Source of the DNA: Candidatus Bathyarchaeota archaeon
GTDB taxonomy: Archaea > Thermoproteota > Bathyarchaeia > 40CM-2-53-6
DNA: 64,000 nucleotides
Direction: 5' to 3'
Assembly: GCA_963780265.1 (NCBI GenBank)
Contig: CAWABQ010000010.1
Coordinates: forward strand, 32,288 to 96,287
The position numbers and the translations under genes were made by a program. Each line of letters opens with the position of its first letter. Position 1 is the first letter of the stretch. This document shows positions 3,411 to 56,964 of this stretch, piece after piece. The notes below the pieces were generated by a model that was given only the letters and a program-made list of their open reading frames with translations, was not told the DNA's origin and made no database searches.

Positions 3411-3833
3411 GTAGACTGACCTTGGAGCCTGCTTCAATTACGCTGAGCAGCCTGATGCGCAAAGCATGGGGCTACTTCAGGGGGATCAGAAAGCAATCAC
3501 CGAGACCGAGAGAGGCCTCATTGCCCTTGGCTGCGTCCACTCTGTCCAGTCTGTCCACGGTTCTAGATACCTAAGCTACAACTGCCAAAGGAGATCTTCT
3601 TAGCTTTCGAAACCCGCGGTGATTGAAGCTACACGGTAGGGTTTGCGTGTCACCATTTAACGGGGGATGTCAACAGAGTGAGAGAACTAGGTAGCGAGAC
3701 ACTAGGAGCATTGCTTTGTCTCTAGGTGAGAGCCCTTCCAGCATCACTAGGAATTATTTCTAGTCAATCTTTTCTAGCTAGAGAGCGTAAGGGCCTCTAT
3801 CCCTTGGGCTACAGTAGCCAACTGGTGAAATTC

Positions 3834-4397
3834 ATGCGTAATGGGGCAACAAAAGGCTTAGTAATCACCGTGAGCGGCCCCCATGGAACAGGCAAGTCGA
3901 CTTACGCAAAAGCCCTCGCGGAAGCTTTGGGGTTGCGGTATGTCTCCGCAGGAGAATTGTTCAGGGACCTAGCGAAGGAAAGAAACCTATCCCTGGAGGC
4001 TTTCAGTAACCTTGCCGCCGAGGACCCTACGATAGACAAGATGATTGATGAGAGGACCAAGGCCGAAGCTAGGAGGGGGGGCATCGTAATCGACGCGCAG
4101 CTTGGAGCTTGGATGGTTAAGGACATTGCAGACGTAAAATTACTCATGGTCGCACCCGATGAAGTCCGTTTCAAGCGAATAGCCGATAGAGATGGCGCAT
4201 CGCTCGCTTCCGCGAAGAAGGAAACAATAGCCCGCGAAGACATACAGAAACAGCGTTACAAGAAATATTACGGAATCGAGGTGGATGAGCCAGGCATCTA
4301 TGATCTTAAGATAGACACCAGCCTGTACTCGGTCGAACAAACCAAGTCCCTTGTTATTGCAGAAGTGCGAAAACTTCTCGCCAAGAAAGAAACTTGA
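3834..4397 (+). CDS. cmk: cytidylate (CMP) kinase, archaeal type
   Basis: P-loop VITVSGPHGTGKST begins right after the internal ATG at 3834. Length about 187 aa. Conserved archaeal context cmk-rpl14e-cbf5. Confidence 0.8.
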   Translation: MRNGATKGLVITVSGPHGTGKSTYAKALAEALGLRYVSAGELFRDLAKERNLSLEAFSNLAAEDPTIDKMIDERTKAEARRGGIVIDAQLGAWMVKDIADVKLLMVAPDEVRFKRIADRDGASLASAKKETIAREDIQKQRYKKYYGIEVDEPGIYDLKIDTSLYSVEQTKSLVIAEVRKLLAKKET

Positions 4398-4470: not shown

Positions 4471-4767
4471 ATGCCAAGCATGGAAGTTGGCCGAATCTGC
4501 GTTAAACTCTTGGGCCGTGAAACCGGCAGGAAATGTGTGGTCGTTGACGTCGTCGACAAGAACTTCGTTTTGGTCACAGGCCCAAAGTCGGTTACGGGTG
4601 TCAGGCGTAGGCGGACTAATGTTGACCATTTGGAGCCCACAGCTGAAAGCGTTGAGGTGAAGAAAGGTGCTCCGGACGATGAGGTCGAGAAGGCCTTGAC
4701 CAAGGATAAGAAGACGAAATTCATGAAAGAAGAGCTCCTGCCGACAATGAAGCCGGTAGCAAGTTGA
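4471..4767 (+). CDS. rpl14e: 50S ribosomal protein L14e
   Basis: N-terminus MPSMEVGRICVKLLGRETGRKCVVVDVVDKNFVLVTGP is the L14e/KOW signature. Length 98 aa. Confidence 0.8.
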   Translation: MPSMEVGRICVKLLGRETGRKCVVVDVVDKNFVLVTGPKSVTGVRRRRTNVDHLEPTAESVEVKKGAPDDEVEKALTKDKKTKFMKEELLPTMKPVAS

Positions 4768-4826: not shown

Positions 4827-5913
4827 ATGTTCTTGGTTTCTGATCGTCGTGTTACTCTACTTAATAGCATCAAAGGCGTAAGAAATCGCGAAGAGGTGAA
4901 CCGTTTGCAGAATCTCATGCCCTGGCAGGTCACTAGAGAACTGGTCGCGAAAGCCGACGATGTGACCGACCCGCGTTATGGCTTCACGCCGGAAGAAAGA
5001 CCAATGCCACTACGAATCAAGTACGGCATCATCAACGTCGATAAGCCTGCTGGGCCGTCGAGCCATGAAATAGTTGCTTGGATCAAGCGCATGATGAAAT
5101 TGTCCCACGCCGGCCACGGTGGAACCCTAGAGACATAACTGTCGGGGTAATCCCAAAGTAACCGGCGTTTTGCCCGTAGGCCTACAAGATGCCACGAAGG
5201 TCATTCAGGGCTTTCTCTACTCGGGCAAGGAATACGTTTGCATAATGCAAATTCACGCCGACATCCCCGAAGCAACTGTTCGCGACGTCCTAAGCCAATT
5301 CGTGGGCGAGATTTACCAGAAACCACCGCTTAGAGCGTCCGTGAAAAGGGAGACGAGGAAACGTTTCATCTACCAACTCAACGTGCACGAAGTAGACGGG
5401 CGGACAGCCCTCTTCACATGCTCATGCCAAGCCGGCACCTACATCCGTAAGCTTTGCTCTGACATCGGTGAAGTGCTCGGTTGTGGTGCCCACATGCGGG
5501 AGCTGAGGAGGACGCGTGCGGGCCCATTAAGCGAGAATGATGGGATTGTGACCTTGCATGAATTGAGTGCGGCGCAATCCGATTTCGAGGCCGATAACGA
5601 AGCGCCCCTGCGGAACATAATCAAGCCCATGGAAGTGGCGCTCTCTGCCCTTCCGCATATTGTAATTCGTGATTCGGCGGTTGACGCGGTTTGCCACGGA
5701 GCCGAATTAGCTTTACCGGGCATAGTGAAATTGGATTCCTTGATTGAGCGTAACAAGTTTGTTGCGGTGTTTACGTTGAAAGGGGAAGGGGTCGCATTAG
5801 GGCGCGCCTTGATGGCGTCTAGGGAGATGCTTGACCAGGAGAAGGGGGTGGCTGTGAAGACTGAACGGGTTCTCATGGAGCGAGGGACGTACCCGGCCCT
5901 CTGGAAGCACTGA
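4827..5913 (+). CDS. cbf5: tRNA/rRNA pseudouridine synthase Cbf5 (TruB family), coding sequence interrupted by a 19-nt insertion at the catalytic Asp codon (candidate mRNA intron)
   Basis: Exon 1 ends GIINVDKPAGPSSHEIVAWIKRMMKLSHAGHGGTL. Exon 2 continues PKVTGVLPVGLQDATKV...PUA domain...YPALWKH. Removing 5132-5150 restores GTLDPKV, the universally conserved TruB motif. Confidence 0.85.
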
Positions 5914-19809: not shown

Positions 19810-19866
19810 CCTGCCAAATCCCCAAACTTCAAAGGTGATGATTTGCTCTCAGTAAAGTGATTCCAA

Positions 19867-21112
19867 ATGTCGAGGAGTTCGGAACTGTCCGGGTTCTACA
19901 AGCTTCCTGTGGCGGATAGGGTGCGACTGCTGAAGGATTTCGCCCGATTAACCGAAGAGGAAGCTGGTTTGCTCCAGAAGCCTGGGGCGCTCGGCTTTGA
20001 CGTTGCGAACCGCATGGTCGAAAATTTGGTGGGCGTTATGCCAGTGCCGCTGGGTGTGGCGATGAATTTTCTAATCAACGGAAGAGACGTGGTCGTACCG
20101 ATGGCTATTGAAGAACCATCGGTAATCGCGGCTGCCAGCAATGCCGCCAAAATGAGCCGGCTGAAGGGTGGTTTCCACGCAACTTCCACGGACCCAATTA
20201 TGATTGGGCAAATACAAATTGTGGGCGTTCAGGATGCGCATAGGGCTCGGTTCGAAATACTCGCAGATAAAGCTGAGATTTTGAAACACGCCAACGAACA
20301 GGATCCGGTCCTTGTATCCCTAGGTGGGAGCCCGCGATTTAGAAGTACGAATCATCGACACTTTCCTCGGACGGATGGTCATCGCTGAGCTACTGGTTGA
20401 CTGTCGAGACGCGATGGGTGCGAACGCGGTGAACACTATGGTGGAGGCAGTTGCTCCCATCGTTGAGCGGATTTCGGGTGGGCGAGTTTGCTTGCGCATA
20501 ATTTCCAATTTGGCCGTGAAACGCCTTGCCCGCGCCAAAGCAACCTTCACCAAAGAGGCGCTGGGCGGAGAAAATGTTGTTGACGGGATCGTGAATGCAT
20601 ACGCATTCGCTGCAGCAGACCCATACCGATGCGCGACCCATAACAAAGGAATCATGAACGGCGTATCCGCTGTCGTACTGGCCACGGGCAACGACACCAG
20701 AGCGATTGAAGCTGGGGCCCACGCATATGCCGCTCGTTCGGGCCATTATACCTCGCTGACAACTTGGGAGAAGGACAGCAATGGTGACTTAGTGGGGACC
20801 CTTGAAATGCCCATGGCGGTTGGGATAGTTGGAGGGGCCACAGCTTCGAATCCGGTAGCAAAATTAGCTGTCAAAATTCTCGGCGTCAAGACGGCGAAAG
20901 AATTGGGTGAAGTGATCGTCTCAGTCGGACTAGCGCAGAACCTTGCGGCGCTTAGAGCCCTAGCGACTGAGGGAATTCAACGCGGCCACATGAACCTGCA
21001 CGCCCGCAACATCGCAATTAGCGCAGGCGCGACGGACGACCTTATCGACAAAATCAGCGAACAAATGGTGGCTGAAAAAAGATTCGAGTTGATCGGGCCA
21101 AGGAGTTGCTAG
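19867..21112 (+). CDS. hmgA: 3-hydroxy-3-methylglutaryl-CoA reductase, frameshifted in this assembly
   Basis: [17 protein letters not shown]...[18 protein letters not shown] then a shift near 20335 (G-run). Continues [12 protein letters not shown]...[11 protein letters not shown]...[14 protein letters not shown]...HMNLHARN. Confidence 0.75.
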
Positions 21113-21561: not shown

Positions 21562-22450
21562 TCAAATCGTCCCGATTAGGAAGGCCAACAGGCCGAACGT
21601 CATCCAGACGAGCACGTAGTTCTTGTTCCTTTTCGCATTTCTAGGACTTGAATTTGTAACCAGGGAATAAGCGGTTAGCAGAAACCCGATGTCACAGATA
21701 GCAACCAAAGGAATGTAGTAGTAGGAGACGATTCCCAAGATGAGGGGTAGGCCACTGAGGGCTACTGCAGCAACAAATAGAAACGCGCCATACTTCGCGG
21801 CCTTGGTGCTTCCTTTCGTCGCAGCCACCGACTTGACTCCCTTAGCAGTGTCGCCGGAGACATCAACAATTCCCTTAACAATTTCCCGTCCCATGCTCGA
21901 GAGGAAAGCAAGGAAAGAGAAAATTCCTAGCGACCAAGTGAGGCTTGCCACAACGAACCCACCGTAAACGAAAGGAATTGCGACATTCGCACTTACGAGC
22001 GATGTTGCCCAAGAGGCCGGTCTTCTTGAGCCGCGCATTATACAAGACCATGACAATCACGCTCATGATAGCAATCATGAGTGTCGCCAAGCCGGAATTC
22101 GATGCGGACCAAAAACCGATTGCTCCTAGGATTAATGAGAATGAAAGTGCTTCGGGGGGCTTGACTACTCCAGCCGGTAGGGGTCGTCCCGGTTCGTTGA
22201 TTGCATCAATTTCCCGGTCGAAGTAGTCGTTCGAAACCATCGAAGCGGCTAAGAGAAGAAAAGCCGTCATGAACCCATAGAATGCTGCTCTCACTGGGAC
22301 AGTAGCTGAAGCTATCAACTCACCGACAATAACCGCAAAACCAATCATGACACAGTTAGGTAGGCGCATCATAGAAAGTAGGCCGGCGATTTTTCGAATA
22401 GGGGAAACATAAGATTGCAATAAGCCCCGCCCTTCGGCCTTGAAGTTCAA
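21562..22450 (-). CDS. UbiA-family prenyltransferase, likely digeranylgeranylglyceryl phosphate synthase; frameshifted in this assembly
   Basis: Two overlapping ORFs (191 and 164 aa) together give about 296 aa. NDYFDREIDAINEPGRPLPAG (first Asp-rich motif) and IVDVSGD (second). Divergent from the GGGP synthase gene. Confidence 0.65.
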
Positions 22451-23113
22451 CCTTCAAACGCAACCAGTCTTAATAGTATTGCAGGCCCGCTTCAACTCTT
22501 AGAGCCCGTCCCTTGATGAGATGAGTGTGAATCAAGACTTGGGATACCGTCAAAGCATCTTCCGCGGCGGTCACTGAAACTGGAATGGACAATGCCTGAC
22601 CGACCTCATTTGCCGTAACGTAAGCTGTTACAGTAACGGCAGATATTCGCGCATTAGAAGGCCGCATCGCTGGCACCTTATGAGTCTCAGTAGCCTTCCC
22701 TTTTCGTCAAAGTCCTGGCTGATTTCACGCACTCGACCGTGCTGGCATACGTTCGCCGAAACGGTCTCCATGTCTGATGGCACAGTCGTTGCATAGACAA
22801 TTTGGTCTGCGTCTCTATTCTCCTTCTAGGCTGCATTTTGCCTGTGCTGGCAGCAAGCAGTAAATGGCACTTAACGCTTGGTGAGCGTGTGGCAATCCTT
22901 ACACGCGGCAGATAATTCCACTAAGTGGAACTAGTTTCTTATCAAGGTGGGATGACAGAAATGTATACGCAAGAAAGCCTGGGCATCAAATGCGTTGGCT
23001 CAAGTTAGGAGTCACTCTTGTAACTGTTGACGAGCGCCAAGACCTGCGTGCGAGAGCATCAATCTCCGAAGTTATACTGTCTTCCGACGGGATTGAAACG
23101 CTCCAGTCTAATT

Positions 23114-30851: not shown

Positions 30852-32510
30852 TTACATCATGCCTGGTGGCATTCCGCCAGGCATTCCTCCCGGCATCCCG
30901 CCGGGGCCTCCTGGAGGACCGCCTTCCTTCGTGCCTTTTGAGGAGAGGATGTCATCTATCCGCAGGAGCATGCAGGCGGCTTCTGTGGCGGATTTGACGG
31001 CTTGCTGTTTCACCCTGAGCGGTTCGACTATGTTATCCGTGAGCATGTCAGCGATCTTGCCGGTTTTGACTTGGACGCCAAACCATTTGTTTTCTGGGTT
31101 TGCGTGTTTTGATCTTAGTTCGACCATTATGTCGATTGGGTCGAGTCCGCTGTTTTCAGCTATTGTGAGGGGGATGGCTTCCAGTGCTTCGGCGTAGGCT
31201 TCGATGGCGAGTTGTTCGCGGCCTCCCACTTTTAGAGCGTAGTCGCGAAGTTGCTTGGCTGTTTCAGCTTCGGGGGCTCCTCCGCCAGCAACAATCTTGC
31301 CATCCTCGACGGCGTTTCTGACTACGCAGAGGGCGTCGTGGAATGATCGTTCAGCTTCGTCGACAACATGGTCGGAGCCGCCCCTGATCATCACGGTGAC
31401 CGAGTGAGGGTCTTTGCAGTCGCGAACGTAAACGAGTTTGTCGTCTCCAATCTTCACTTCTTCGACGAGTTTTGCTTCACCGAGTCCTTCTGATGGTATG
31501 TCTTTGGTGCTGGCTTGTATGGTTCCGCCGGTGGCTTTGGCGAGTTTCTCCATGTCGCCGCTGCTCACGTTCTTGACGGCCATTATGTTCTTCTTGGCGA
31601 GGAAGTGCAAGGCCATGTCGTCGATGCCTTTCTCGCAGAAGATTACATTGGCCCCGCTCTTCGCTACCTTCTCGGTCATTTCGCGGAGCATTGATTCTTC
31701 TTCGTCGAGGAAGCCTTTCATTTGGTCTGGTGAATTGATGTTAATTTTGGCGTCGAACTCGGTCTTCTCAATCTCGAGTTTCGCGTTGAGTAGGGCGATC
31801 TTCGCGTTTCTTACTTGTTTTGGCATTTGGGGGTGTGCGATCTCTTTGTCGACAACGATGCCTTTGACGAGTTCGCTTTGCTCCATGCTCTCGCCCTTTT
31901 TCTTCAAAACCTTGATTCGGTCTATGTCGGCGGTAATCTTGCCATCTCTCTCTTCCATGACCTGACGGATGGCTTTCGTGGCTAGTGTTCCGAGGTGTTC
32001 GCTCGTTCCTACGGTTGCCTTTGTGCTCATCGAGGTCATTGCAATGAGTTTAAGCATCTTTTCGTCGTCAGGTTGTATGTCGATTGATAGGTTTTGGAGA
32101 ATCTCCAAGGCTTTGTCGGAGGCCTTCTTGTAGCCTTCAACGATTACGGTTGGGTGGACTTCCTGGTCGAGAAGCTTCTCTGCCCTCGTCAAGAGTTCGC
32201 CGGCGAGAACAACGACGGTGGTCGTACCATCCCCCACTTCACTGTCTTGGCTCTTCGCTACCTCAACAAGCATCTTGGCGGCGGGATGTTGAACATCCAG
32301 TTCCTTCATTATGGTGGCTCCGTCGTTTGTTATGACTACGTCACCCATACCCGAGACCAGCATTTTGTCCATCCCTTGCGGGCCGAGCGTGGTCTTGATG
32401 GTTTCAGTGATAACTTTCGCGGCGAGTATGTTGTTCCGTTGCGCATCCTTTCCCGTAGTACGCTGAGAACCTTCTCTCAGAATCATAACTTGCATTCCTT
32501 GTGTGGACAT
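30852..32510 (-). CDS. thermosome subunit (group II chaperonin), paralog 1
   Basis: [33 protein letters not shown]...GDGTTT...[14 protein letters not shown] and C-terminal [16 protein letters not shown] tail. Confidence 0.9.
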
Positions 32511-34024
32511 ATTGGATCATCAAATTGTAACTTCGATTCGTGAGGTAACGACCTTGACCTAGAATCAGAGGCCTGGTCTTAGAGAGCCTCGAGATTGTGT
32601 GGCCTGCGCCACATGGTTTTCGGCTGTTACCTCTGGTAACTTATATGTCGTCCGTGCTATATTAACTACACAATAAGCTCTCTCTTCCGAGCCCCAATCC
32701 GACAACCACACCCTTTCCTGTTTCTGAGAATACGTACGATTTCAAATCTGAAAAGACAACTTCACCGCTTGAGCAAGTCAAAATCGATGCTCCACGCACC
32801 GCTCACACAAGGATTGAGCGTTACGTCAGAATAAACTGCAAGACCATGACCCGCAACGGTCACAGTAGCCCTCGACCACCATAGGAGCCCTCCTTCTACC
32901 GGGATTAGTCCTTCCGATTTGTCGTGTGGCAGCGCTCGAAGCAACCCTCAGTTCTAGTCGTGAGTCCTCGTCGTTTTCCTTCTCTTTCTTCTTCTCGACT
33001 TATCCTCTTGATCTTGAGGCAATCATGTCACGCAACTAGGAATTTGGAATTCTTTTTCGTAATTCCTTTTTGTCATAAGATTTACTGACCCTCGTTCTGT
33101 TCTCTTCTTGTTTCCGTTCCTTTCTCCTCTCTTCCTTTCTGCGGCTGGTTATTCTCATTCTTCTGACTCTACGTCTCTCCTTTCCTTTCACAGCCGATCC
33201 CCCAATAACTACTGCTGAGAGCCCCTCTTGTCAAATCGAGGTCTTACTGAATTGAAGTAGGCGCACGAATAGAACTTTTCCTATTTATTTCCAGGAGTAT
33301 AAGTGGTCAGGGGTTCGGGGCACGTCGCGGGTGTATGAAGGATTCACGACATTGGTCTGAGCAGAATGCGTACCCCTCGTGTAGAACAGGTTTGTCGATT
33401 TTCTTACCGCAGTTTGAACAATACGTCACGTGAGTCTCGTTCGCCTCTGCGGTCAACTCTCTCTACACCGTTTTCGATTTCTGGCTCCCTTACCTCTATG
33501 TCAGGCGTCGTCTACAAACGTTTGGGATTAGGGTGGCCATTGTTTCCGTCTTCGACTCTCGATAATGCCTTAAGGCTGATCTTTGAGTTTAATTGTCGAT
33601 GGCGAGAATTATCCCCGAGGGCATGACGGAAGCAGAATCCTGGCTTTGCAATTCGAGGCCAAAGGATAGCAGGAAAGGTTCTTCTGTTCGCATGTTACTG
33701 AATCTGATGGAAGAGTCCTGATTTGACGAGACCTGAATGGCAGAAGAAACTAAAGAAAATGGCCAGTAGAGCGGGTCAAGGGACTGGCGGGGCGCTGTAG
33801 ACTTTGGCGCAAGTTGGGAAGGGCCTTAAAGACCGATTATGCCCCAGTTGCCATCAATCAACCTACGCCCTGTGTGGAACCTGCGGGAAGTGCAACAAGT
33901 GCTGCAATTGTAGCTCAAACACTAACCGCTCGGACACCGAGCCAGGTTAATTCACAATCTACCGGCGTTCGCATCAGGACGAATCCACTCTCCGCACTGG
34001 ACGCTCCCAGCATCTTCCGGCGAG

Positions 34025-41572: not shown

Positions 41573-43217
41573 ATGTCTACACAAGGTGTACCTGTTATAA
41601 TCCTAAAGGAAGGAACTCAACGAACAACGGGCAAGGACGCCCAGCGAAACAACATACTCGCAGCCAAAGTCGTAGCTGACACGGTCAGAACGACACTTGG
41701 GCCACGGCGGAATGGACAAGATGCTCGTCAGCACCATCGGCGACGTCATCATCACAAATGACGGCGCGACAATCATGAAAGAACTTGACATACAGCATCC
41801 TGCGGCTAAAATGCTCGTAGAAGTTGCCAAGACGCAGGACAACGAGGTGGGAGACGGAACCACCACTGTCGTAGTTCTAACCGGCGAATTACTAGAGAAT
41901 GCTGAGAAACTCCTCGACAAGGACATACACCCCACCGTCGTGGTCGAGGGCTACAAGAAGGCGTCAGAGAAGGCTAGAGAAATACTCGACGGCCTCAGCG
42001 AAAAGATCGACACGAACGATGCGGAAACCCTCAGAAGGATCGCAATGACCGCCATGGGCACCAAGGGTGTGACCGGCGCCAAAGATTACCTGGCGAAGAT
42101 AGCTGTGGATGCGGCCCTCCAAGTCAAAGAAACTAGAGACGGTAAGACGAGGGTTGACGTCGACCTTGTCAAGGTATTGAAGAAACACGGCAAGAGCCTC
42201 GAAGAAACAGAACTTGTCCGTGGCATCGTGATCGACAAGGAAGTTGCTCACCCACAGATGCTGAAGCGAACCGAGAACGCAAAGATCGCCCTACTCAACG
42301 CCAAGCTCGAAATCGAGAAGACCGAGTTCGACGCGAAAATCAACATAGACAGCCCGGACCAAATGAAGCTCTTCCTTGACGAAGAAGAACGCATGCTGAA
42401 GGAAATGGTTGACAACGTCGCTAGGAGTGGCGCCAACTTCGTATTCTGCGAGAAATCCATCGACGATGTAGCGCTACATTTCCTCGCCAAGAAGGGAGTC
42501 GCGGCGATAAAGAACGTGAGCAGTGGGGACATGGAGAAACTTTCCAAGGCCACTCGCGCCAAAATCGTAGCAACCGTCAAAGACCTAGCAAAAGAATCCC
42601 TCGGTGAGGCAAAACTCGTCGAAGAAGTGAAGATCGGAGACGACAAACTGACCTACGTCAGGGACGCCAAGAACCCGATGGCGGTGACAGTCGTAGTTCG
42701 AGGAGGAGCTGAACATGTTGTGGATGAGGCTGAACGGTCTCTGCACGATGCCTTATGCGTCGTTAGGGACGCAATTGAGGATGGCAAGATTGTTGCTGGT
42801 GGAGGCGCAGCCGAAGCGGAGACAGCAAAGCAACTACGCGAGTACGCCGTCAAGGTCGGTGGTCGTGAGCAGCTGGCTATCGAGGCCTTCGCAGACTCCA
42901 TCGAAAGCGTACCCTTAGCCCTAGCCGAAAACGCCGGCCTAGACCCCATCGACATCATGGTCGAATTACGGTCCAAGCATGAGAACCCGGAAAACCGCTG
43001 GTACGGCGTCGATGTCTTCTCCGGTGAAGTTAGAGACATGCGCAGCTTGAACGTCATAGAGCCGCTCCGCGTGAAACTCCAAGTTGTCAAATCCGCCACT
43101 GAATGCGCTTCAATGATCCTTCGCATTGACGATGTCGTGGCTTCCAAGGGAGGCGGGCCACCCATGCCCCCAGGTGGAGGCATGCCCGGTGGAATGCCAG
43201 GCGGAGACGACTACTAA
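41573..43217 (+). CDS. thermosome subunit (group II chaperonin), paralog 2; frameshifted by 1 nt near 41705 in this assembly
   Basis: [45 protein letters not shown] then a shift. Continues [27 protein letters not shown]...[13 protein letters not shown]. Deleting one nucleotide of CCACGGCGGAATGG restores TLGPRGMDKML. Confidence 0.8.
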
Positions 43218-44506: not shown

Positions 44507-45649
44507 CTAATTCGCGCGGCGTTCGTCAGGTATTCGGGATTCCAGAACTCTTTCGACTTTAGACTTGAGAGTGTCATGGTTCAACATGTTTTGGTCAATC
44601 ATTTCGGCTACATGAAGGGACGTTGCGCGGAATGCGTTGCCGTATTGCTCTGTATGATCAGGGATTGGCACAAGTACCATGGGCTTCCCATAGACGAGGG
44701 ATTTCATGATCGTTCCGTGGCCCGCCCTGGCGACGACCAAGTCGCTGGCCTTGATGAAATCCTCCTGATTCTCAATCCAATCGTAAACCCTCACCCCGCC
44801 CACGGAATGCATTGCTCTTTCTCCTTCAGGATTGCCTCGGGAGAGTGCGATTTGATAATTCTTCGAGAACCCTTGGAAAGCGTCAAGGAGTTTTCGAGCT
44901 AATATTTCGCGTTCAACCTTCGGCCCGCTGACAGCAGCGTAGATGAAGGGTAGTTTAGTTTCAAGGCCTATTTCGCGCCGAATATGCTCGCTCGACTTGC
45001 TGTGGTGCTCCTCAACAATGGGGCCGATGAACTTCACCTTTTCTTGGTAGCGTCTGGGAATCGCGAGGTTTCCCAGCGAAATCGTGTATGGCGGCGGTAA
45101 GTCAGGGATGAGTATGACCTGGCTTCGCCCCCACACCAGTTGGATGGCTGTTCGAACGAAAAGCCATCCTACGTTGGCGATGAAGAAGAATAGCCGGTCG
45201 TGCAGTGTCAACGAGCGGCCTGATGGGCGTCTGATTATTTCAACTCGGAACTGGTTGAGCATTAGGGCGGCTGGAATTCTAAGCAGCCAGGCTGCTACAA
45301 GTGAAGAGGCCCGAGAGTCCGATAGAACAGCGTCCGGCCTGAACTGCTTCAAGAATTGAATTTCGCGGACTACTTGCTGGAGGAATGTTCTGATGCCCAG
45401 CGAAAAGCCGCTAGTGGCGGCCGTCTTTTTGAAATCTATTGCACCGTCGTTTGTTACTTTGAAGTTGATTGGCACGGCCTCATAGGTCGGCAAGAGGTTG
45501 CGTCTCGCATAATTGAGTCCGTCAAGGTAGGTGGAAAATACGGTTTCGACTTCCCGGCGTTTCAACTCATTAGCGATTGGGTGAACTCGTGTTATGTGGC
45601 CTAACCCTATACCGCAAGGCGCCAAGTAAACACGCAATCTCATCTTCAC
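44507..45649 (-). CDS. glycosyltransferase family 1 (MGT/UDP-glycosyltransferase-like)
   Basis: C-terminal nucleotide-sugar motif ARAGHGTIMKSLVYGKPMVLVPIPDHTEQYGNAFRA. Confidence 0.55.
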   Translation of the reverse strand: MKMRLRVYLAPCGIGLGHITRVHPIANELKRREVETVFSTYLDGLNYARRNLLPTYEAVPINFKVTNDGAIDFKKTAATSGFSLGIRTFLQQVVREIQFLKQFRPDAVLSDSRASSLVAAWLLRIPAALMLNQFRVEIIRRPSGRSLTLHDRLFFFIANVGWLFVRTAIQLVWGRSQVILIPDLPPPYTISLGNLAIPRRYQEKVKFIGPIVEEHHSKSSEHIRREIGLETKLPFIYAAVSGPKVEREILARKLLDAFQGFSKNYQIALSRGNPEGERAMHSVGGVRVYDWIENQEDFIKASDLVVARAGHGTIMKSLVYGKPMVLVPIPDHTEQYGNAFRATSLHVAEMIDQNMLNHDTLKSKVERVLESRIPDERRAN

Positions 45650-46292
45650 CGACGCTCTTTCTCCTAACCTCGCCAGCAGGCTTCACTTCCTCGAAAATCT
45701 CTCCCTCAAAGATTTTGACTTCAACCCCGTCAAGAAGCCACGAGTCGGGAGGCAGCCCTGCTTTCAGGCAACAATTCATCAGAAACTCCGATGAGTCCCA
45801 TTTCCACTCAGTCGCCACTTGCGGCAGGAGCAGGCCTGAATTGCCTCCACGGGCGACGATGAGGCCATGCCGGCCGACTTGAATTAGCTCTGGAAGCGAT
45901 TTCCGATCATGTACTTTCAAGGCCTGCGGTTCAGTGAGGGCGGTGAGTTCCACAACAATAGAGCCCTCGAATTCTTCCAAGGAGATTGGGGGAAATCTTG
46001 GGTCGTCTGTAGCCGCATAGATTGCGGCCTTGATGGTAGCGTTCAGTAGGGGTTCTTCCGGGTATGGAAACCCGATGCAGCCTCGCAATTCGTTGGCGGG
46101 TTTCGTAGCGTTTAGCGTTATGAAAACGCCGGATTTCCTAAGCAGCCTTTCAGGCGCGTCTTGGGGCGGTTTGATTATCTCATTGCTTTTTAGGTACCTG
46201 GTGGTGGCCAAGCGTGCGATTTGTACTAGCGTTTTACCTTCTTCAAGGGTGAGCCTGTTCTGTGCTAGCTGTGCTGTTTCTCTTCGCGTCAA
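45570..46292 (-). CDS. AMMECR1-domain protein
   Basis: LRGCIGFPYPEEPL is the AMMECR1 signature with conserved Cys. Confidence 0.7.
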   Translation of the reverse strand: MTRRETAQLAQNRLTLEEGKTLVQIARLATTRYLKSNEIIKPPQDAPERLLRKSGVFITLNATKPANELRGCIGFPYPEEPLLNATIKAAIYAATDDPRFPPISLEEFEGSIVVELTALTEPQALKVHDRKSLPELIQVGRHGLIVARGGNSGLLLPQVATEWKWDSSEFLMNCCLKAGLPPDSWLLDGVEVKIFEGEIFEEVKPAGEVRRKSVGEDEIACLLGALRYRVRPHNTSSPNR

Positions 46293-46762
46293 GAATTTTC
46301 CTCGCGCTTTCCAGTGTTTGTTCTATCTTTTTCCAGTGGCTTCCTTGCCAGTACACTTTGGCGCACTTGGGATTGGTGCAAAGCCAAAAACTCTGGTATA
46401 CTTTAAACGTTGTTGGAGGAACCGAGGCTTCCACTTCATCCTTTGAAGCTTCTCTTATCGGAAACCCGCACAACGGGCATTTTGAAATTGCCGTGTCGAT
46501 TTCGAGCCTAAGGTTATAGTGTTCTGCGAGGCTTGCCAATCGCTCTGGCTCTGTGCGTCCCTGCACTAGCGAGGTCTGGATGCCCTTCATGGCTGCGGTC
46601 CTGTAGAGTTCTTCGATCCGAAGTCAGCAGGATGAGGGAATCACGTTTGGCGATTGAAAGCAGGTCTCGGTCGGAACTGTCGTTCAGGTAGACCGATTCG
46701 TACCCGAGCATCCGAAGCCACCTCGCCAACTTTCCCAGCATTCCATCTAGGAGGAAGCGCAT
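46243..46762 (-). CDS. Mut7-C (DUF82) PIN-like RNase domain protein with C-terminal zinc ribbon; frameshifted in this assembly
   Basis: N-part [26 protein letters not shown]...ILLTSDRR. C-part CPLCG...FWLCTNPKCAKVYWQGSHW. The two overlapping ORFs are joined. Confidence 0.6.
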
Positions 46763-48014
46763 GCCCTATCGCTCTTGGTGACTCTTCCCACAGCAGGTCC
46801 CACGATCCTTCCCCTCTCAGCAACCAATGTCCCATTCACAATCGTGTAAGCCGCCATTCCAACGCATCGGTATCCCTTGAACGGCGAGTATTTCGCCTTA
46901 CTCTGAAAGCTCTCTGGTGTAATTCGTGTCTTGGCCTTCGGGTCAACGAGCACGATATCTGCATCGTAACCTTCCTTGAGTTCGCCCTTTCTTGACAAGC
47001 GAAAGAGTCTAGCCGGAAGCGTGGCCGTAGCGTCGACGAGCCTTCGCAACGAGAGTTTTCCCAGTGAGACCTGCGTGAACATTACTGGGAGGGATGTTTC
47101 CAGGCCAGGTACTCCTGAGGCTGCGTCCCAGGCGTTATCCTTCGTCTTCTCTTCCAGCGTGTGCGGGGCGTGGTCACTAGCGAGTATGTCCACCTGCCCT
47201 TTCGCGAACAACTTCCATAGGCCATTCCTGTTTGCTTCGCTTCTAATCGGGGGGACACAAATCGCTAGAGTCTTCTGCTTTCGGAAGACTGTTTGATTTA
47301 GGAGTAGGTGGTGGGCGGAGGCTTCGCATGTTGCGTTCGGTGCCTTTCGGACGAGGTTCACGGCTTCCGGAACGGTGATGTGGCAGATATGAAGTCGCAG
47401 TCCCAGCTTGCTGCCGAGGCCTAGAATCTTGCGGACTGCATATACTTCGATTTCTGGTGCATGTGCTCTGAGAAAGTCTCGGATAGATGTCTTCCCTCGG
47501 CGCTAGGCTCTCCTGCTGAGACTTCCTGATGCGGTCTCCGTCTTCTGCGTGGACGGTGACGATAGCCTCAGCCTGTTTCGCAGCTTGAAGCGCATTCATC
47601 AAATCGGTTTGGTCGCTCGAGTCAAACGTTACGAGTGCCTTGTTTAGGTATAATTTGAAAGCGATTGCGCCCTGCTCAACCATTCCTTTCATTTCGTTCG
47701 GGTCTTCAACTAGCGATCCCTGAAAGGCCACGTTTGAGTACAGCCTGCCCTTCCGCCTTTGCCATCTTATCAGCCAAATTGGGGCTGCTGACTGTCGGGG
47801 GGCGGGAATTCGGCATATCGAATACAGTAGTGAATCCGCCGACTGCCGCTGCGCGAGTCCCTGTCTCAAAAGTCTCCTTGTAGGACAAGTCGAAGTCGCG
47901 AAGGTGAACGTGCGCATCGATTAGTCCGGGCAGGGCAATTAGGTGGCTGCCGTCTATTTTCAGAGTCGGCCGTCGAAGTGGGTCGAAGTCTTCGGAATGC
48001 TCTTGATGCGCCAT
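46747..48014 (-). CDS. pyrC: dihydroorotase, split into three ORFs by two or more frameshifts in this assembly
   Basis: N: [40 protein letters not shown]. Middle: [10 protein letters not shown]: ASDHAPH...[10 protein letters not shown]. Confidence 0.7.
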
Positions 48015-48290
48015 CTTCCAAAAAAATGTGAGCGGTTGTCAACTCGTTGTTGACGAGAATCTGGTAGATTCGATTAGTATTGATGGCATGACTAGTTGCA
48101 CCGCCTGCTGGATCTTCACTTGGGTCAGGGTTAAGGCCGTTGGTTATCTTCTTCAGGTACTTCGAATCAGCTGCGCAGTCGTCGCATACGAACTGGCCGT
48201 CATGCGAGGTTTCAACTCATCAGCCCACGAGCCACACGTGTCGCAGTATCCTGACAGTGGCGCGGTTTCCTTTATCTCTCTGTACGGGCG

Positions 48291-51969: not shown

Positions 51970-52034
51970 GGCCACACGGGGCCTTTCTGCTTTGAATGAG
52001 CGCCCTACGCATTTTCGCGGAGGTTAATTAGAGC

Positions 52035-53634
52035 ATGGGCGCCCAGCATGCCTCACCACTCGAAGCCTCGCTCCTATCTGAATTGGCTTCGCGCATAATT
52101 GAAGTCGGAGCAACCGACCCTGATAGCCTCAATAGGGTAAAGTTGGAGTTCTGCAAGAGGCACGAACTCAGTTGGATGCCCCGCAACTCTGACATTCTCA
52201 GCGCCTTGCCGCCGCACATGAAGCAAAAGTTCGGGCCGACTCTGCGGCTGAAGAAAGTGCGCAGCATTTCGGGGGTGAACGTTATTGGAGTCATGAGTTC
52301 ACCGCGCGGCTGCCCGCACGGCCGCTGCGTATTCTGTCCCATGGAGAAAGGGTTCCCTATGAGTTACACCTCAGGTGAACCTGCAGCCATGAGGGGCTTC
52401 CAGTCTGGATACGATCCGTTTCTCCAGATCAGCAGTCGACTTGAGCAGCTCAAAGCCATCGGCCATGTACCTTCGAAGGTCGAGCTTGTCATTCAGGGCG
52501 GCACCTTTTTGGCAGCACCTTTCGACTACCAAGAGCACTTTGTAACCCGATGCCTAGACGCAATTAACGGCGTGAACTCATCGACACTCGAGGAAGCAAA
52601 GTCCCGAGCCGAGGTCAGTGAAGTTCGCAATGTAGGCTTAACCATCGAGACGAAACCTGACTGGTGTAAGCAGCCGCACGTCGACCAAATGCTAAGGTTT
52701 GGGGGCACGCGCGTTGAAATTGGCGTGCAAGTAATCGATGATTACATCTATGCACTTACTAATCGGGGTCACACGGTGGCAGACGTGGCCGAAGCTTTTC
52801 AAATAGCCAAAGACGCGGGCTTCAAGATTGTTGCACACATGATGCCAGGTCTGCCGGGCTCTGACTTTCAGAAGGACCTTGAATCATTCAGGACGCTTTT
52901 CGAGAACCCGCGGTTTCGTCCCGATATGATCAAAATCTATCCTTGCCTCGTCATGGAAGGCACGGAACTGTATGAGTGGTGGAAACGCTGGCCTCTACCA
53001 GCCATACGATGCAGAGCAAGCCGCTGAACTCATCGCCAAGGTAAAGGAGTTCGTTCCGCCCTGGGTCCGGATAATGCGGGTCCAAAGAGAGTTCCCTGTT
53101 CAACTCATTCAATCGGGTGTAATGAAGGGCAACCTTCGTGAACTCGTCGTAAGGCGGTTGAGGGAGAGGGGAAAAAGATGCATGTGCATCCGGTGCCGCG
53201 AGGTAGGCCACAGGATGCTCAAGGAGAAGGTGACCGTTCAACCCGACCGAATTCGCCTTCTAATGCAGGAATACGAAGCGTCTGGGGGAAAAGAGCTGTT
53301 CATCTCCTTTGAAGAACCCGAAGCAGGGGTCCTGATAGGATACTTGCGTCTGAGAATGCCCTCTGAAAAAGCGCACAGGCCCGAGGTTGATGCGGCCAGC
53401 GCAATCATCCGAGAGTTGCACGTATACGGCCCTGAGGTTCCTGTTGGCCTAAGAGATGGGGGTGCTTGGCAGCACACCGGTTTAGGCCGTAAACTGCTAG
53501 CGGAAGCTGAGACAGTGGCAAGGGAACGCGGGGCGAGCAGAATTCTCGTCCTGAGTGCGCTTGGGACGAAGGGCTACTACAAGCGCGCTGGCTACGACTA
53601 TGTCGGCCCCTACATGGGAAAGATGCTGAACTGA
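52035..53634 (+). CDS. elp3: ELP3-family tRNA uridine(34) acetyltransferase (radical SAM plus GNAT), frameshifted near 52980 in this assembly
   Basis: CPHGRCVFCP (Cx4CxxC radical-SAM cluster), GTELYEWWKR, and a C-terminal GNAT domain (QHTGLGRKLLAEAE). Confidence 0.75.
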
Positions 53635-53701
53635 CCCTAGAGAAATAGCATAGCTAACGTCTTAAGGGTCTCAGCTTTCCTTTTCCAAAGATTGGACTGA
53701 G

Positions 53702-55061
53702 ATGGCTTTGTCCCACGAGGAATTGTACGGTTATTCCGGCGTCTCACGCGATGTACTGGCAAAGGCAGGCGCACAGATTGGGGATAGACTCAGACTCGAA
53801 GTGAAACGTACTGGCGGTCAGGAGGTTGTGGAAGGGCTTCTCATGCCGCGATACCATTCCGGCCTGGAGGAGAATTATGTCGTCGTGAAGTTAAGGACTG
53901 GATATAATGTGGGCGTCCGAGTTGACGTTGCCACAAAGGTTAGCGTTCTAGGTAAGGGAGAAGCGCCCCATTTCACTCGCCCCGCCCTCCCACAACAGAA
54001 AGCAGGCCTACCGAAGGTATCTATTATCAGCACAGGAGGCACAATCGCCAGTAAAGTCGATTATAGAACTGGGGCCGTGAAACCCGCCCTTGATTCAGAA
54101 GACTTGTACAGTGTAGTCCCTGAGTTGGCAGATCTGGCCACCATTGACGCCAAAGTTTTGCTTAGCGTCTTCAGCGAAAACATAGGGCCACAACAATGGC
54201 CCAAGATCGCAGAGTCGGTCGCAGAGCAAGTTCGCGCGGGGGCGGATGGTGTGGTGATAGCGCATGGAACTGATACTCTCGGTTACACAGCTGCTGCTCT
54301 CAGTTTTGCTTTGCAGGGCATACCGGTGCCCGTTGTATTGGTCGGTTCACAACGTTCGTCCGATCGACCCAGCTCCGACGCGGCGACCAACCTGCTAGCG
54401 GCGACGGCAGTTGCTGGCCAGGCTCCTTTCGCTGAAGTTGTGGTCGCTATGCATGATTGGGTTTCGGATGAGAGGGTCGCCGTCCATAGAGGAACAAAGG
54501 TACGCAAGTGCCACACCAGTAGAAGAGACGCCTTCAGGAGCGTTAACGCTCGTCCCATCGCATATTACGACCTCCTAAATCGAGCCCTCCAACTTAACGG
54601 CCAGAAATACGGAAAGACACAAACGTTCAGATTGGGAAGTTCGCTCCAAGTTCGACCCGAACGTTGCGCTCATAAAATTCCACCCGGGGCTTTCAGTGGG
54701 TATGATTGATTGGGCGACGGCCACGGGCTACAAGGGCATCGTCCTTGAAGGGACAGGACTAGGCCACGTTAGCGACACCTTGTTCCCGGCGCTTGAGAGG
54801 GCGGTAAAGGATGGAATCGTGGTGGGCATGTGCTCTCAATGCATCTGGGGACGGGTGCACATGAACGTCTACTCTACCGGACGGGATTTGCTAAAGATCG
54901 GAGTACTACCGCTAGGTGACATGCTCCCGGAGACAGCACTGGTGAAAATGATGTGGGCTTTCGGCCAAGAAAAGGACCCCGAGAAAGTCAAGAAGATAAT
55001 GATCAAGAGCATTGCAAACGAAATCTCAGACAGACGCACCTTAGAGGCTGCCGTAGAATGA
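53702..55061 (+). CDS. gatD: glutamyl-tRNA(Gln) amidotransferase subunit D, frameshifted near 54690 in this assembly
   Basis: Asparaginase-type motifs ISTGGTIAS, HGTDTLGYTAAALSF, GYKGIVLEGTGLGHV. Stop overlaps the gatE start (ATGA). Confidence 0.8.
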
Positions 55062-56964
55062 GCGTTGATTCAAAGGCTCAGCCTAGAATCAAGGTCGGGC
55101 TGGAAATTCACAGGCAACTTGACACGGAGCACAAACTGTTCTGTGCCTGCCCAACCGATTTTGCTGAGTCGGATCCTGAAAAAAAGTTCATGCGCAGGTT
55201 GAGGCCGACGCAAAGTGAGTTGGGCCAAGTCGACCAGGCGGCGCTGTTCGAATTCCACCGCGGAAGAAGTGTAATCTATGAAGAAGACGATGAGACCTCA
55301 TGCCTAGTCGAAATGGATGAGGAGCCACCGGGAAAACTCAACGGAGAAGCTGTTGAGGTATGTTTGACTGCAGCCCTGTTGATGAATGCCAAACCCGTCG
55401 ATGAAATTCATGTGATGCGCAAGGTCGTGATCGATGGCTCTAACACCACAGGGTTCCAACGGACGTGCGTGGTCGCCCTAGACGGAGCGCTAGAGGTTGA
55501 CGGAAAGGAAATTCCAATTCAACAGATTTCATTAGAAGAAGACGCGGCGCGCAAGACCGGTCAATCAAGCGAAACAGTTGGGTATAGGATAGACCGGCTC
55601 GGCGTCCCCTTGATAGAAGTGACAACTGCGCCGGTGATGGATTCCGCGGGCGAAGTCGAGAAGGTTGCATACGCAATAGGCACTATCCTGAGGGCGACGA
55701 GAACAGTGAAGAGGGGTTTGGGAAGCATTCGGCAAGACTTGAACATTTCAACCCCAGGCGGCGCCCTCATGGAAATCAAGGGCGTCCAGGAACTCGATAT
55801 CCTGAGTAAAGTCGTCGAAACAGAAGTCAACCGGCAGCAAACACTGCTTGAAATACGGGATGAACTGGGGCGACCGGCGTGAGTCCAAGTTTACTCGAAA
55901 GGAAATATGGCGATGTCACCGAGGTTTTTGCTGGCTCCAAAGCTCGAATAATGAAGGAAGCAATCTCGAAAGGCGGCGTCGTGGTGGCCGCTAAGCTTCC
56001 CAAATTCAGGGGGCTATTAGGGAAGGAGCTTGCGCCAGGGTTGAGGCTTGGGACGGAACTGTCCAACCGTGCCTCGTTCTGGGCAGGTGTCGGTGGCATA
56101 TTTCACTCCGACGAGCTTCCGGGTTATGGTGTTACGGAAGAGGAAGTCCACCATGTGAAGGACCGGTTGAATGTTGCAGGCGATGATGCTTTTGTCCTGG
56201 TCGCTGACGAGAAGGCTAAAGCAAAAGATGCTTTAGATGCTGTCGTCGACCGAGCCATCGAAGCCATCTCTGGCGTCCCTGAAGAAACGCGCACCGCGAT
56301 GCCTGACGGGACGACGAGATACATGCGGCCTAGGCCGGGCGCCGCTCGGATGTACCCCGAAACCGACGTCCCGCAAACACCCGTCACACAAGAATTAGTC
56401 ACGAAGTTGAAGGCACACCTTCCGGAAACCCCTGAAAGCCTGACCAAACGACTGGTTGATCAATACTCGCTAAACCAAAAACTGTCAAAACAGCTGGTCG
56501 ACTCAGATTACCTTACCCTCTTCGAACAAATAACAGCAACCAGCAAAGTGCCGCCCACATTCATCGCCACCGTGTTGACTGAAAGCTGCAAAAGCCTTGA
56601 ACGTGAAGGTGTACCCGTCCACTCTATCCCAGACAGTAAGATCCAGGGTATCTTCGGATTAGTAGATGAAGGAACGGTCGCCAAAGAAGCTGTTATAGAC
56701 CTGTTGAAGTGGCAAGCGGCGAATCTAACCTCAGATCCGGCTGACGGAATCAAGAAACTGGGGCTAAGAATGTTGACTCAGCGCAAACTTGAGGAGATCA
56801 TCGACCGACACATAGAGAAGAACAGAAAGCTCGTCGACGAAAAGGGGGAAGCGGCTTTCTCATCTCTTATGGGGTCGGTAATGTCCGAGGTCAGGGGATC
56901 TATTGAACCTAAGTTAGTTACCGAGACGTTGAAGAAGAGATTATCCAAAGCGGGTCGAAAATAG
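55058..56964 (+). CDS. gatE: glutamyl-tRNA(Gln) amidotransferase subunit E, frameshifted near 55875 in this assembly
   Basis: MSVDSKAQPRIKVGLEIHRQLDTEHKLFCACPT, and GatB/YqeY-like C-terminal part in the second ORF. Confidence 0.8.

Follow-up and report, generated by a model that had tools for sequence, protein, structure and literature searches.

We analyzed a 64,000-nucleotide (nt) stretch of contig CAWABQ010000010.1 from a Candidatus Bathyarchaeota archaeon (hereafter the window, numbered from its first letter), in which the gene cbf5 is divided between two open reading frames (ORFs) of the forward strand that occupy frames 0 and 1. ORF1 (4827..5138) ends with HAGHGGTLET*, the DNA at the interruption reading ...GGT GGA ACC CTA GAG ACA TAA... 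(stop TAA 5136-5138), and the second frame continues with PKVTGVLPV... (PKVTGVLPVGLQDATK...) from 5152 through to TGA 5911-5913. The initial annotation had interpreted this arrangement as an otherwise collinear gene carrying a 19-nt insert at the catalytic Asp codon, that is, a candidate bulge-helix-bulge (BHB) intron. We recomputed the excision that it had proposed. Removal of 5132-5150, or equally of 5131-5149, indeed recreates CTA GAT CCC (L-D-P) within a single open frame of 1068 nt, and the motif GTLDPKV is regained once these 19 nt are removed. Other 19-nt deletions lose the Asp, 5130-5148 giving L-N-P and 5133-5151 giving L-E-P.

The host gene is cbf5, which encodes the archaeal H/ACA pseudouridine synthase. 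The spliced product contains the Pfam domains DKCLD, TruB_N, TruB_C_2 and PUA. It reached 433 bits (cutoff 242) over profile positions 2-319 of the NCBIfam Cbf5 equivalog NF003280 and 426 bits (cutoff 238) with a second NCBIfam Cbf5 equivalog. Taken alone, ORF1 covered positions 2-67 of NF003280 with 76 bits and the called ORF2 positions 74-319 with 318 bits, the latter being above the cutoff by itself; the two pieces are therefore exactly collinear, as the initial annotation had stated. The spliced product also matched the solved Cbf5 chain 2aus_C over residues 2-323 (E = 1.5e-111) with no gap at the junction (AGHGGTLDPKVTGVLPV vs. AGHGGTLDPKVSGVLPV). The start of exon 1 is uncertain. Its frame is open from ATG 4827 and ATG 4917 is a further possible start, but TTG 4905 is favoured because most exon-1 ORFs of relatives start at MQTVMPW, which aligns to this codon, and because GAGGTGA 4893-4899 sits 5 nt before it. 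The exons and the predicted structural elements are listed in the table.

Table. Coordinates of the cbf5 exons and of the predicted intron and its fold in the window (a slash marks a predicted cut)
Feature	Position	Strand	Remarks
cbf5 exon 1	4905..5130	+	DKCLD and start of TruB_N; last letter is the G of the catalytic Asp codon
cbf5 exon 2	5150..5913	+	AT of the Asp codon, PKVTGV..., rest of TruB_N, TruB_C_2, PUA, stop TGA 5911-5913
Putative BHB intron, 19 nt, AGACAUAACUGUCGGGGUA	5131..5149	+	strict BHB geometry; 5132-5150 equivalent, same spliced product
Central 4-bp helix, exonic strand CCCU (Thr/Leu codons)	5125..5128	+	pairs with 5144-5147
Central 4-bp helix, intronic strand GGGG	5144..5147	+	pairs with 5125-5128
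5' bulge A-G/A	5129..5131	+	predicted cut 5130/5131
Intronic hairpin h'	5132..5143	+	GACA 5132-5135 with UGUC 5140-5143, loop UAAC; holds the in-frame TAA 5136-5138
3' bulge U-A/A	5148..5150	+	predicted cut 5149/5150
Outer exonic helix h, 5' strand UGGAA	5120..5124	+	pairs with 5151-5155
Outer exonic helix h, 3' strand UCCCA	5151..5155	+	pairs with 5120-5124
Distal exon-exon stem, 5' strand ACGCCGG	5107..5113	+	pairs with 5162-5168; in the minimum free energy and centroid folds
Distal exon-exon stem, 3' strand CCGGCGU	5162..5168	+	pairs with 5107-5113

Predicted fold of the interrupted region

Introns in cbf5 are known in Desulfurococcales and Sulfolobales (Watanabe et al. 2002; Yokobori et al. 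2009, PMC2738675), where they measure 16 to 44 base pairs (bp), lie between letters 1 and 2 of the codon for the Asp named as the catalytic residue, and are cleaved between the second and third bulge residues (PMC2738675). In the window, the interruption falls at this very point of the codon, CTA G/19 nt/AT CCC. The minimum free energy (MFE) and centroid folds of the 66-nt segment 5105-5170 both take a BHB shape, with -26.4 kcal/mol and z = -2.74 relative to dinucleotide shuffles: two 3-nt bulges on opposite strands (5129-5131 and 5148-5150) are separated by a 4-bp helix (5125-5128/5144-5147). On the intron side, helix h' has 4 bp (GACA/UGUC), over the at least two Watson-Crick pairs required of a BHB, and it encloses the TAA that terminates the unspliced frame. 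On the exon side, helix h comprises the pairs A5124-U5151, G5122-C5153, G5121-C5154 and U5120-A5155 and the mismatch A5123.C5152; at least two Watson-Crick pairs are required to close the bulge here as well, and with one pair, the mismatch and then three pairs the window is slightly relaxed on this side. Cuts placed by the published rule at 5130/5131 and 5149/5150 would join G5130 to A5150 and give GAU (Asp).

The initial annotation, which had pointed to a BHB-like fold of this region, thus anticipated the shape obtained and correctly described the hairpin GACA-taac-TGTC (5132-5135/5140-5143). Its other structural proposals needed correction. The flanking ACCC/GGGT complementarity that it had noted does exist as an alternative register favoured by the MFE calculation, but the helix that matters is CCCU 5125-5128 with GGGG 5144-5147. 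The cleavage sites that it had placed at 5131/5132 and 5150/5151 are shifted by the BHB rule to 5130/5131 and 5149/5150, although the mature mRNA is identical. It had also called the motif relaxed; the fold is a BHB with two 3-nt bulges 4 bp apart, but by its geometry it appears near canonical rather than markedly relaxed, and fully canonical in relatives with GGGA.

No tRNA was found by a tRNA scan of the window, which leaves no tRNA intron in it for comparison, and an Rfam scan of the window gave no match at gathering thresholds. Group I and group II introns possess a ribozyme core of hundreds of nt and inteins are in-frame protein-splicing domains. We rejected these candidates for an insert of 19 nt that is out of frame and has no Rfam match in the window.

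The insert in related loci

A scan of one genome per species yielded 80 loci, or 81 with the window. An insert of 11-35 nt was present at exactly the Asp codon in 47 of these 81 loci, and the other 34 read an uninterrupted GTLDP. The nearest loci (87-89% amino-acid identity) came from soil and peat metagenome-assembled genomes (MAGs) labelled Candidatus Bathyarchaeia. Nearly all sampled loci with a Bathyarchaeia label had the insert, the exceptions being L033 and L076. It was also present in Jordarchaeia/Freyarchaeota and in the unlabelled or Thermoproteota-labelled contigs that cluster with them (L024-L027, L032, L035, L040 and L041), as well as in the Sulfolobales and L077, labelled Desulfurococcales (L077-L080). 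It was absent from all sampled Hadesarchaea, Methanomethylicia, Helarchaeota and Hodarchaeaceae and from two single loci, L046 (labelled Desulfurococcales) and L031 (uncultured archaeon). Moreover, 49 full-length Cbf5 matches with 56-61% identity read GTLDP, the named ones being labelled Bathyarchaeota, so that the intron is patchy within the class; the intron-bearing loci were patchy on a quick neighbour-joining (NJ) tree as well.

The close protein relatives (76-98% identity) were all called as C-terminal fragments of 222-278 amino acids (aa), and the close N-terminal relatives as short ORFs of 66-115 aa ending in GTLE.., among which one collection protein (P0150) is identical in sequence to ORF1 of the window. 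Using a pattern that leaves the 12 inner bases free, we found the intron-bearing junction in at least 120 metagenome contigs of the Joint Genome Institute (JGI), vs. none with an intron-less junction between the flanks of this lineage. Judging from these loci and contigs, the putative intron is fixed in a widespread lineage of mesophilic soil and peat Bathyarchaeia, and the suggestion that the window is a further lineage example was borne out by the same-codon insert in the 46 related loci and these contigs.

The pairing expected of a BHB was retained across this set. In the strict register, the central helix was paired at 4 of 4 positions in all 47 intron-bearing loci (188/188 cells), whereas sliding the 3' strand by 1-3 nt lowered the pairing to 36-68%. 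Nine combinations of exonic and intronic strands were observed, including CCCU/GGGG, CCUU/GAGG, CCUU/AAGG, CUCU/GGAG and CACU/AGUG, indicating that synonymous changes of the Thr and Leu codons were matched by changes in the intron. We also counted pairs formally in a gap-free alignment of the 19 sequences with 19-nt introns. There, 86.4% of the cells were paired vs. 29-47% in slid registers; the central helix was 100% paired with two compensatory pairs, and the hairpin pair 29-38 showed seven double changes. The observed covariation score was reached by none of 500 shuffles. Among the metagenome contigs, 62 of the 63 distinct inner 12-mers can be closed by a stem of 3 bp or more, vs. 6% of shuffles. 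These comparisons show that the predicted BHB fold has been maintained in evolution by compensatory changes, in support of the intron interpretation initially put forward.

The exons bear marks of the same motif. The 5' bulge was AG/A in 44 of the 47 loci, and cleavage by the rule restores GAT or GAC in all of them. The Leu codon had the form NTA (CTA or TTA) in 47/47 intron-bearing genes vs. 5/34 intron-less ones, and the outer exonic helix had 3.6 of 5 pairs in the former vs. 1.8 in the latter. From this codon usage, the exon codons appear adapted to the BHB motif. Both exons also evolve as coding sequence. The ratio of nonsynonymous to synonymous substitution rates (dN/dS) was 0.08-0.17 for both exons in comparison with the two closest relatives, and the finite estimates with more distant relatives were 0.02-0.16, the synonymous rate being saturated elsewhere. 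No frame-disrupting or nonsense change of the exons was seen in the 10 relatives checked. These estimates indicate that both cbf5 exons are under purifying selection.

Beyond helix h, pairing of 5107-5113 with 5162-5168 and of 5116-5117 with 5158-5159 lengthens the BHB stem to about 60 nt. This distal stem is mostly conserved and provided one compensatory pair in the formal count (CG/UA): the pair formed by alignment columns 4 and 63 changes from C-G to U-A in 4 of the 19 relatives. At several positions, distal pairs formed more often in genes with the intron than in those without it. These observations point only weakly to the distal stem as a part of the BHB platform, because the positions concerned are conserved codons.

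Several individual loci deserve mention. In the eight MAG contigs L024-L027, L032, L035, L040 and L041, the intron is 27-35 nt long at the identical position of the Asp codon, the junction being located just upstream of locus position 2501 (1194 in L041). Six of them carry an Asgard label (Jordarchaeia, Jordarchaeales or Freyarchaeota), and the other two, L024 ("uncultured archaeon") and L040 ("Thermoproteota"), cluster with these six. Most of the eight display a textbook hBHBh' motif in which the central helix is CACU/AGUG or CACU/GGUG and the inner stem has 7-10 bp; in L032 the inner stem does not form in that register. L039, labelled Nitrososphaerota, has a minimal 11-nt insert (GGGCTGGGGAA) at the same codon, just upstream of 2501. 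Both bulges and the central helix are retained in this insert, which is too short to accommodate an inner helix and is bulge-helix-loop-like. Finally, the intron-bearing cbf5 of L030 and the intron-less cbf5 of L033 share one bin (MAG accession CAYGAE01). We rejected the possibility that one is a retro-processed copy of the other, since the proteins are only 69% identical, corresponding to two organisms in one bin.

Splicing and the competing explanations

We conclude that 5131-5149 is very probably a 19-nt archaeal BHB intron in the cbf5 pre-mRNA, situated where Desulfurococcales and Sulfolobales have their cbf5 intron. In the transcript, the exon codons ACC-CUA-G would pair through CCCU with the intronic GGGG to produce the BHB fold. 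By analogy with known BHB introns, the tRNA-splicing endonuclease EndA would cut between residues 2 and 3 of each bulge, and an RtcB-type ligase would join the exons, generating the GAU codon of the catalytic Asp and bringing exon 2 into frame. The predicted junction has ...GGTGGAACCCTAG joined to ATCCCAAAGTAACC..., in an mRNA 19 nt shorter than the DNA, and the 19-mer would be released, probably as a circle. Translation of the unspliced mRNA should stop after some 80-100 N-terminal aa, at GTLET*; the reading frames show that this mRNA would be unable to encode an active Cbf5. Since no active Cbf5 is expected without splicing, the intron is a potential gate on Cbf5 output, and one may speculate that this output depends on the tRNA-splicing machinery.

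The window insert fits every sequence-level criterion of the published cbf5 intron family, as far as can be judged from its letters. The gene, the insertion point and the cleavage rule are the same, which agrees with the statement in the initial annotation that such introns are known in Crenarchaeota (PMC2738675); the 19 nt fall within the range of 16-44 bp and neither contains an internal ORF. The Sulfolobales loci L078-L080 have the exon context CCCU-AG/A ... GGGG-NA/A, as in the window. On the other hand, the published hosts are hyperthermophilic crenarchaea and the host here belongs to mesophilic soil and peat Bathyarchaeia, the hairpin is GACA/UGUC instead of the crenarchaeal GCCC/GGGC, and the published introns mostly have an unconventional BHB that needs a heterotetrameric EndA, whereas the window motif is close to canonical. 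Splicing of the crenarchaeal intron has been demonstrated experimentally, the window intron being known from its sequence. EndA-dependent cleavage was demonstrated earlier (Watanabe 2002, as reported in PMC2738675), and partial cDNA sequences of five further species were reported as consistent, as unpublished results (PMC2738675).

The archaeal tRNA and rRNA introns of the hBHBh' type (Marck and Grosjean 2003; definition in PMC7714728) share the 3-4-3 geometry and the flanking helices with the window motif and presumably the same enzymes, EndA and an RtcB-type ligase, and the size of the window insert is typical of short tRNA introns. Unlike them, the window intron would lie in a protein-coding sequence, its central and outer helices each having a strand made up of codons, so that nucleotide-exact excision would be needed to restore both the frame and the catalytic residue. 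In Haloferax volcanii, the splicing endonuclease likewise acts on an mRNA, that of HVO_1309. The removal of this BHB intron appears important for expression, but it is located in the 5' untranslated region (UTR), does not interrupt coding sequence, and belongs to a different gene and phylum (PMC7714728).

Several observations weigh against the BHB intron. The nearest-neighbour MFE favours, by 2.6 kcal/mol over the strict register, a central helix of 5 bp and a bulge of 4 nt, with A5124 paired to U5148; the first two nt of the 3' bulge, however, comprise 13 dinucleotides across relatives, and the A5124-U5148 pair is thus not conserved. An A.C mismatch adjoins the closing pair of helix h in the window, a position that is G-C in 5 of the 19 relatives, where helix h is a continuous 5-bp helix. 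No junction-spanning protein of at least 70% identity was found in a collection of 5.8 billion proteins. With a query centred on the junction, the close relatives were exon-1 fragments only (46-52% query coverage) and the read-through matches were 38-68% identical; with the full-length query, only C-terminal fragments appeared among close relatives. The spliced junction also had no match in a DNA scan of metagenome contigs. These absences argue only weakly against splicing, because poor metatranscriptome coverage of such a gene is to be expected. Finally, frame errors are numerous in the assembly that contains the window; the insert is nonetheless reproduced in many independent assemblies.

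This last point bears on the explanation that the 19 nt were inserted spuriously during long-read assembly, which is prone to errors. Its appeal comes from the genes for HMG-CoA reductase, UbiA and Elp3, which are broken in the same window by collinear single-base frame shifts. Those breaks, however, amount to 1 nt without extra residues, whereas the cbf5 insert is structured and 19 nt long. It recurs at the same codon in 46 related loci from many projects and in the JGI contigs, among which no intron-less junction with these flanks was found, and the 63 distinct inner 12-mers exclude one shared contaminated source. An artefact therefore has a negligible probability in our opinion. It is also highly implausible that the insertion inactivated cbf5 and left a decaying pseudogene. 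A broken DNA reading frame and a disrupted catalytic codon are what such a gene would display, but the exons are intact, with dN/dS of 0.02-0.17 across relatives at synonymous sites near or at saturation, the pairing within the insert is preserved through compensatory changes, and the exon codons are fitted to the BHB motif. The interruption might instead have been exploited to make two polypeptides, an N-terminal one of about 80-100 aa and a C-terminal one of about 247 aa, that assemble without RNA splicing. Gene callers yield exactly two such ORFs in all relatives, and ORF2 by itself passes the cutoff of the Cbf5 model. Against this, the Asp codon is divided between the pieces, leaving neither polypeptide with the catalytic Asp, a residue that no pseudouridine synthase can do without. 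ORF2 has its first in-frame start (TTG 5170) downstream of the PKVTGV codons, yet these are conserved, and such a split gene would leave unexplained the BHB covariation and the constraint for an NTA Leu codon. We hold it to be very improbable, if slightly less so than a pseudogene.

On an unspliced mRNA, ribosomes could also bypass the 19 nt in the manner of T4 gene 60, or shift frame. A stable hairpin and a close stop (TAA 5136-5138) are features of bypass sites too. The take-off and landing codons are mismatched, though, and the Asp codon has to be assembled from G...AU, which is impossible by hopping at the nucleotide level. Conservation does not extend to the in-frame stop, relatives reading GTLETS... 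or GTLEAS..., and the 3-4-3 BHB geometry stays constant over insert lengths of 11 to 35 nt. In addition, the homologous crenarchaeal insert is removed at the RNA level by EndA (PMC2738675). Translational recoding is accordingly about as hard to credit as a pseudogene. A different kind of alternative accepts a real EndA-type intron but supposes that it was gained separately at a preferred site and is not homologous to the crenarchaeal one. The intron is missing from Thermoproteales, Cenarchaeum, Nitrosopumilus and Korarchaeum in the published survey (PMC2738675), many Bathyarchaeia Cbf5 are intron-less (the 49 full-length GTLDP matches) and the distribution is patchy on the quick NJ tree, all of which would suit convergence. 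The lineages nevertheless share the codon phase, the exonic CCCU half (ACC-CUA), the near-invariant AG/A bulge and the overall design, which speaks for descent from one ancestor with losses, or for transfer along with the gene. Convergence is unlikely in our judgement, although much less so than the preceding alternatives, and the splicing mechanism would be the same in either case.

Evolutionary implications and other features of the window

By the accepted history, the cbf5 intron was gained in the ancestor shared by Desulfurococcales and Sulfolobales (PMC2738675). The present distribution allows another history, which we put forward tentatively and consider rather doubtful: a single ancient insertion that predates the divergence of Bathyarchaeia from Sulfolobales/Desulfurococcales and either predates the split from the Asgard class Jordarchaeia or moved between these lineages with cbf5, followed by many precise losses. 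If true, its long retention at the catalytic codon, with exon codons fitted to it, would imply a selected function, which could be a splicing-dependent gate coupling Cbf5 synthesis to EndA/RtcB activity. In any event, the timing and number of cbf5 intron gains call for a fresh look, and it may be necessary to reconsider the relation proposed in the literature between growth at extreme temperatures and the retention or loss of the intron.

Extremely few BHB introns are known from protein-coding sequences of archaea; in a paper of 2020, cbf5 in Crenarchaeota was cited as the only other archaeal BHB intron reported beside the paper's own 5' UTR case (PMC7714728). The phenomenon itself is twenty years old, and its occurrence in MAGs of Bathyarchaeia and Jordarchaeia/Freyarchaeota widens the published distribution. 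We found no report of a cbf5 intron in Bathyarchaeia or Asgard in a literature search that covered few of the subscription journals. With its whole substrate on a 66-nt RNA, the window motif offers a compact system that could be used to study the dependence of an mRNA on the tRNA-splicing machinery.

Public annotations divide the gene into a "Cbf5" without the catalytic Asp and a short ORF, and the exact junction enables annotators to repair it. In the records of this lineage (P0001-P0120, P0150-P0240; L006, L014), the larger part is named "Cbf5" or "H/ACA subunit 4," and the short ORF is unnamed, bears a generic H/ACA-subunit or TruB label, or is called "hypothetical protein." Several contigs with a split cbf5 are found in bins labelled as bacteria (Acidiferrales/Acidoferrales, Methylomirabilota, Saccharimonadales and Terriglobales), which suggests mis-binning.

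Three other genes of the window are each split over two frames. These are the genes for HMG-CoA reductase (19861-21112, forward strand; Pfam coordinates 2-135/137-368), for a UbiA prenyltransferase (21562-22453, reverse strand; Pfam coordinates 4-118/114-244) and for an Elp3-like radical-SAM/GNAT protein (52032-53634, forward strand; Radical_SAM_C 1-25/23-84). We rejected introns as the cause of these breaks, which are collinear on the Pfam profiles with no inserted residues; they are single-base frame breaks, most likely due to errors of long-read assembly. The initial annotation had rightly set the defects elsewhere in the window apart from the cbf5 insert as a different phenomenon, but the homopolymer runs to which it had attributed them were not seen in these three cases. 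Runs of three or four overlapping ORFs of the same strand in different frames at 45570-48216 (reverse) and 53666-56964 (forward) are probably further frame-shifted genes.

A generic hBHBh' scan of the whole window returned 257 raw matches on the forward strand vs. about 235 in block-shuffled sequence, and the raw count is thus uninformative. The other matches that lengthen an ORF merely bridge neighbouring ORFs or delete about 100 nt of coding sequence inside the HMG-CoA reductase gene, and were rejected; joining of ORFs across the matches of the window gave no convincing intron besides that of cbf5. Directly upstream of cbf5, on the same strand, lies a cytidylate-kinase-like gene (3726-4397; Pfam Cytidylate_kin2), and between the two is a 98-aa ORF (4471-4767, forward strand) that resembles ribosomal protein L14e by eye, with no Pfam match at E <= 1e-5. 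Elsewhere in the window, two ORFs of more than 500 aa, at 30852-32516 (reverse strand) and 41676-43217 (forward strand), carry C-terminal repeats of the GGMPGGMP type and appear thermosome-like by eye.

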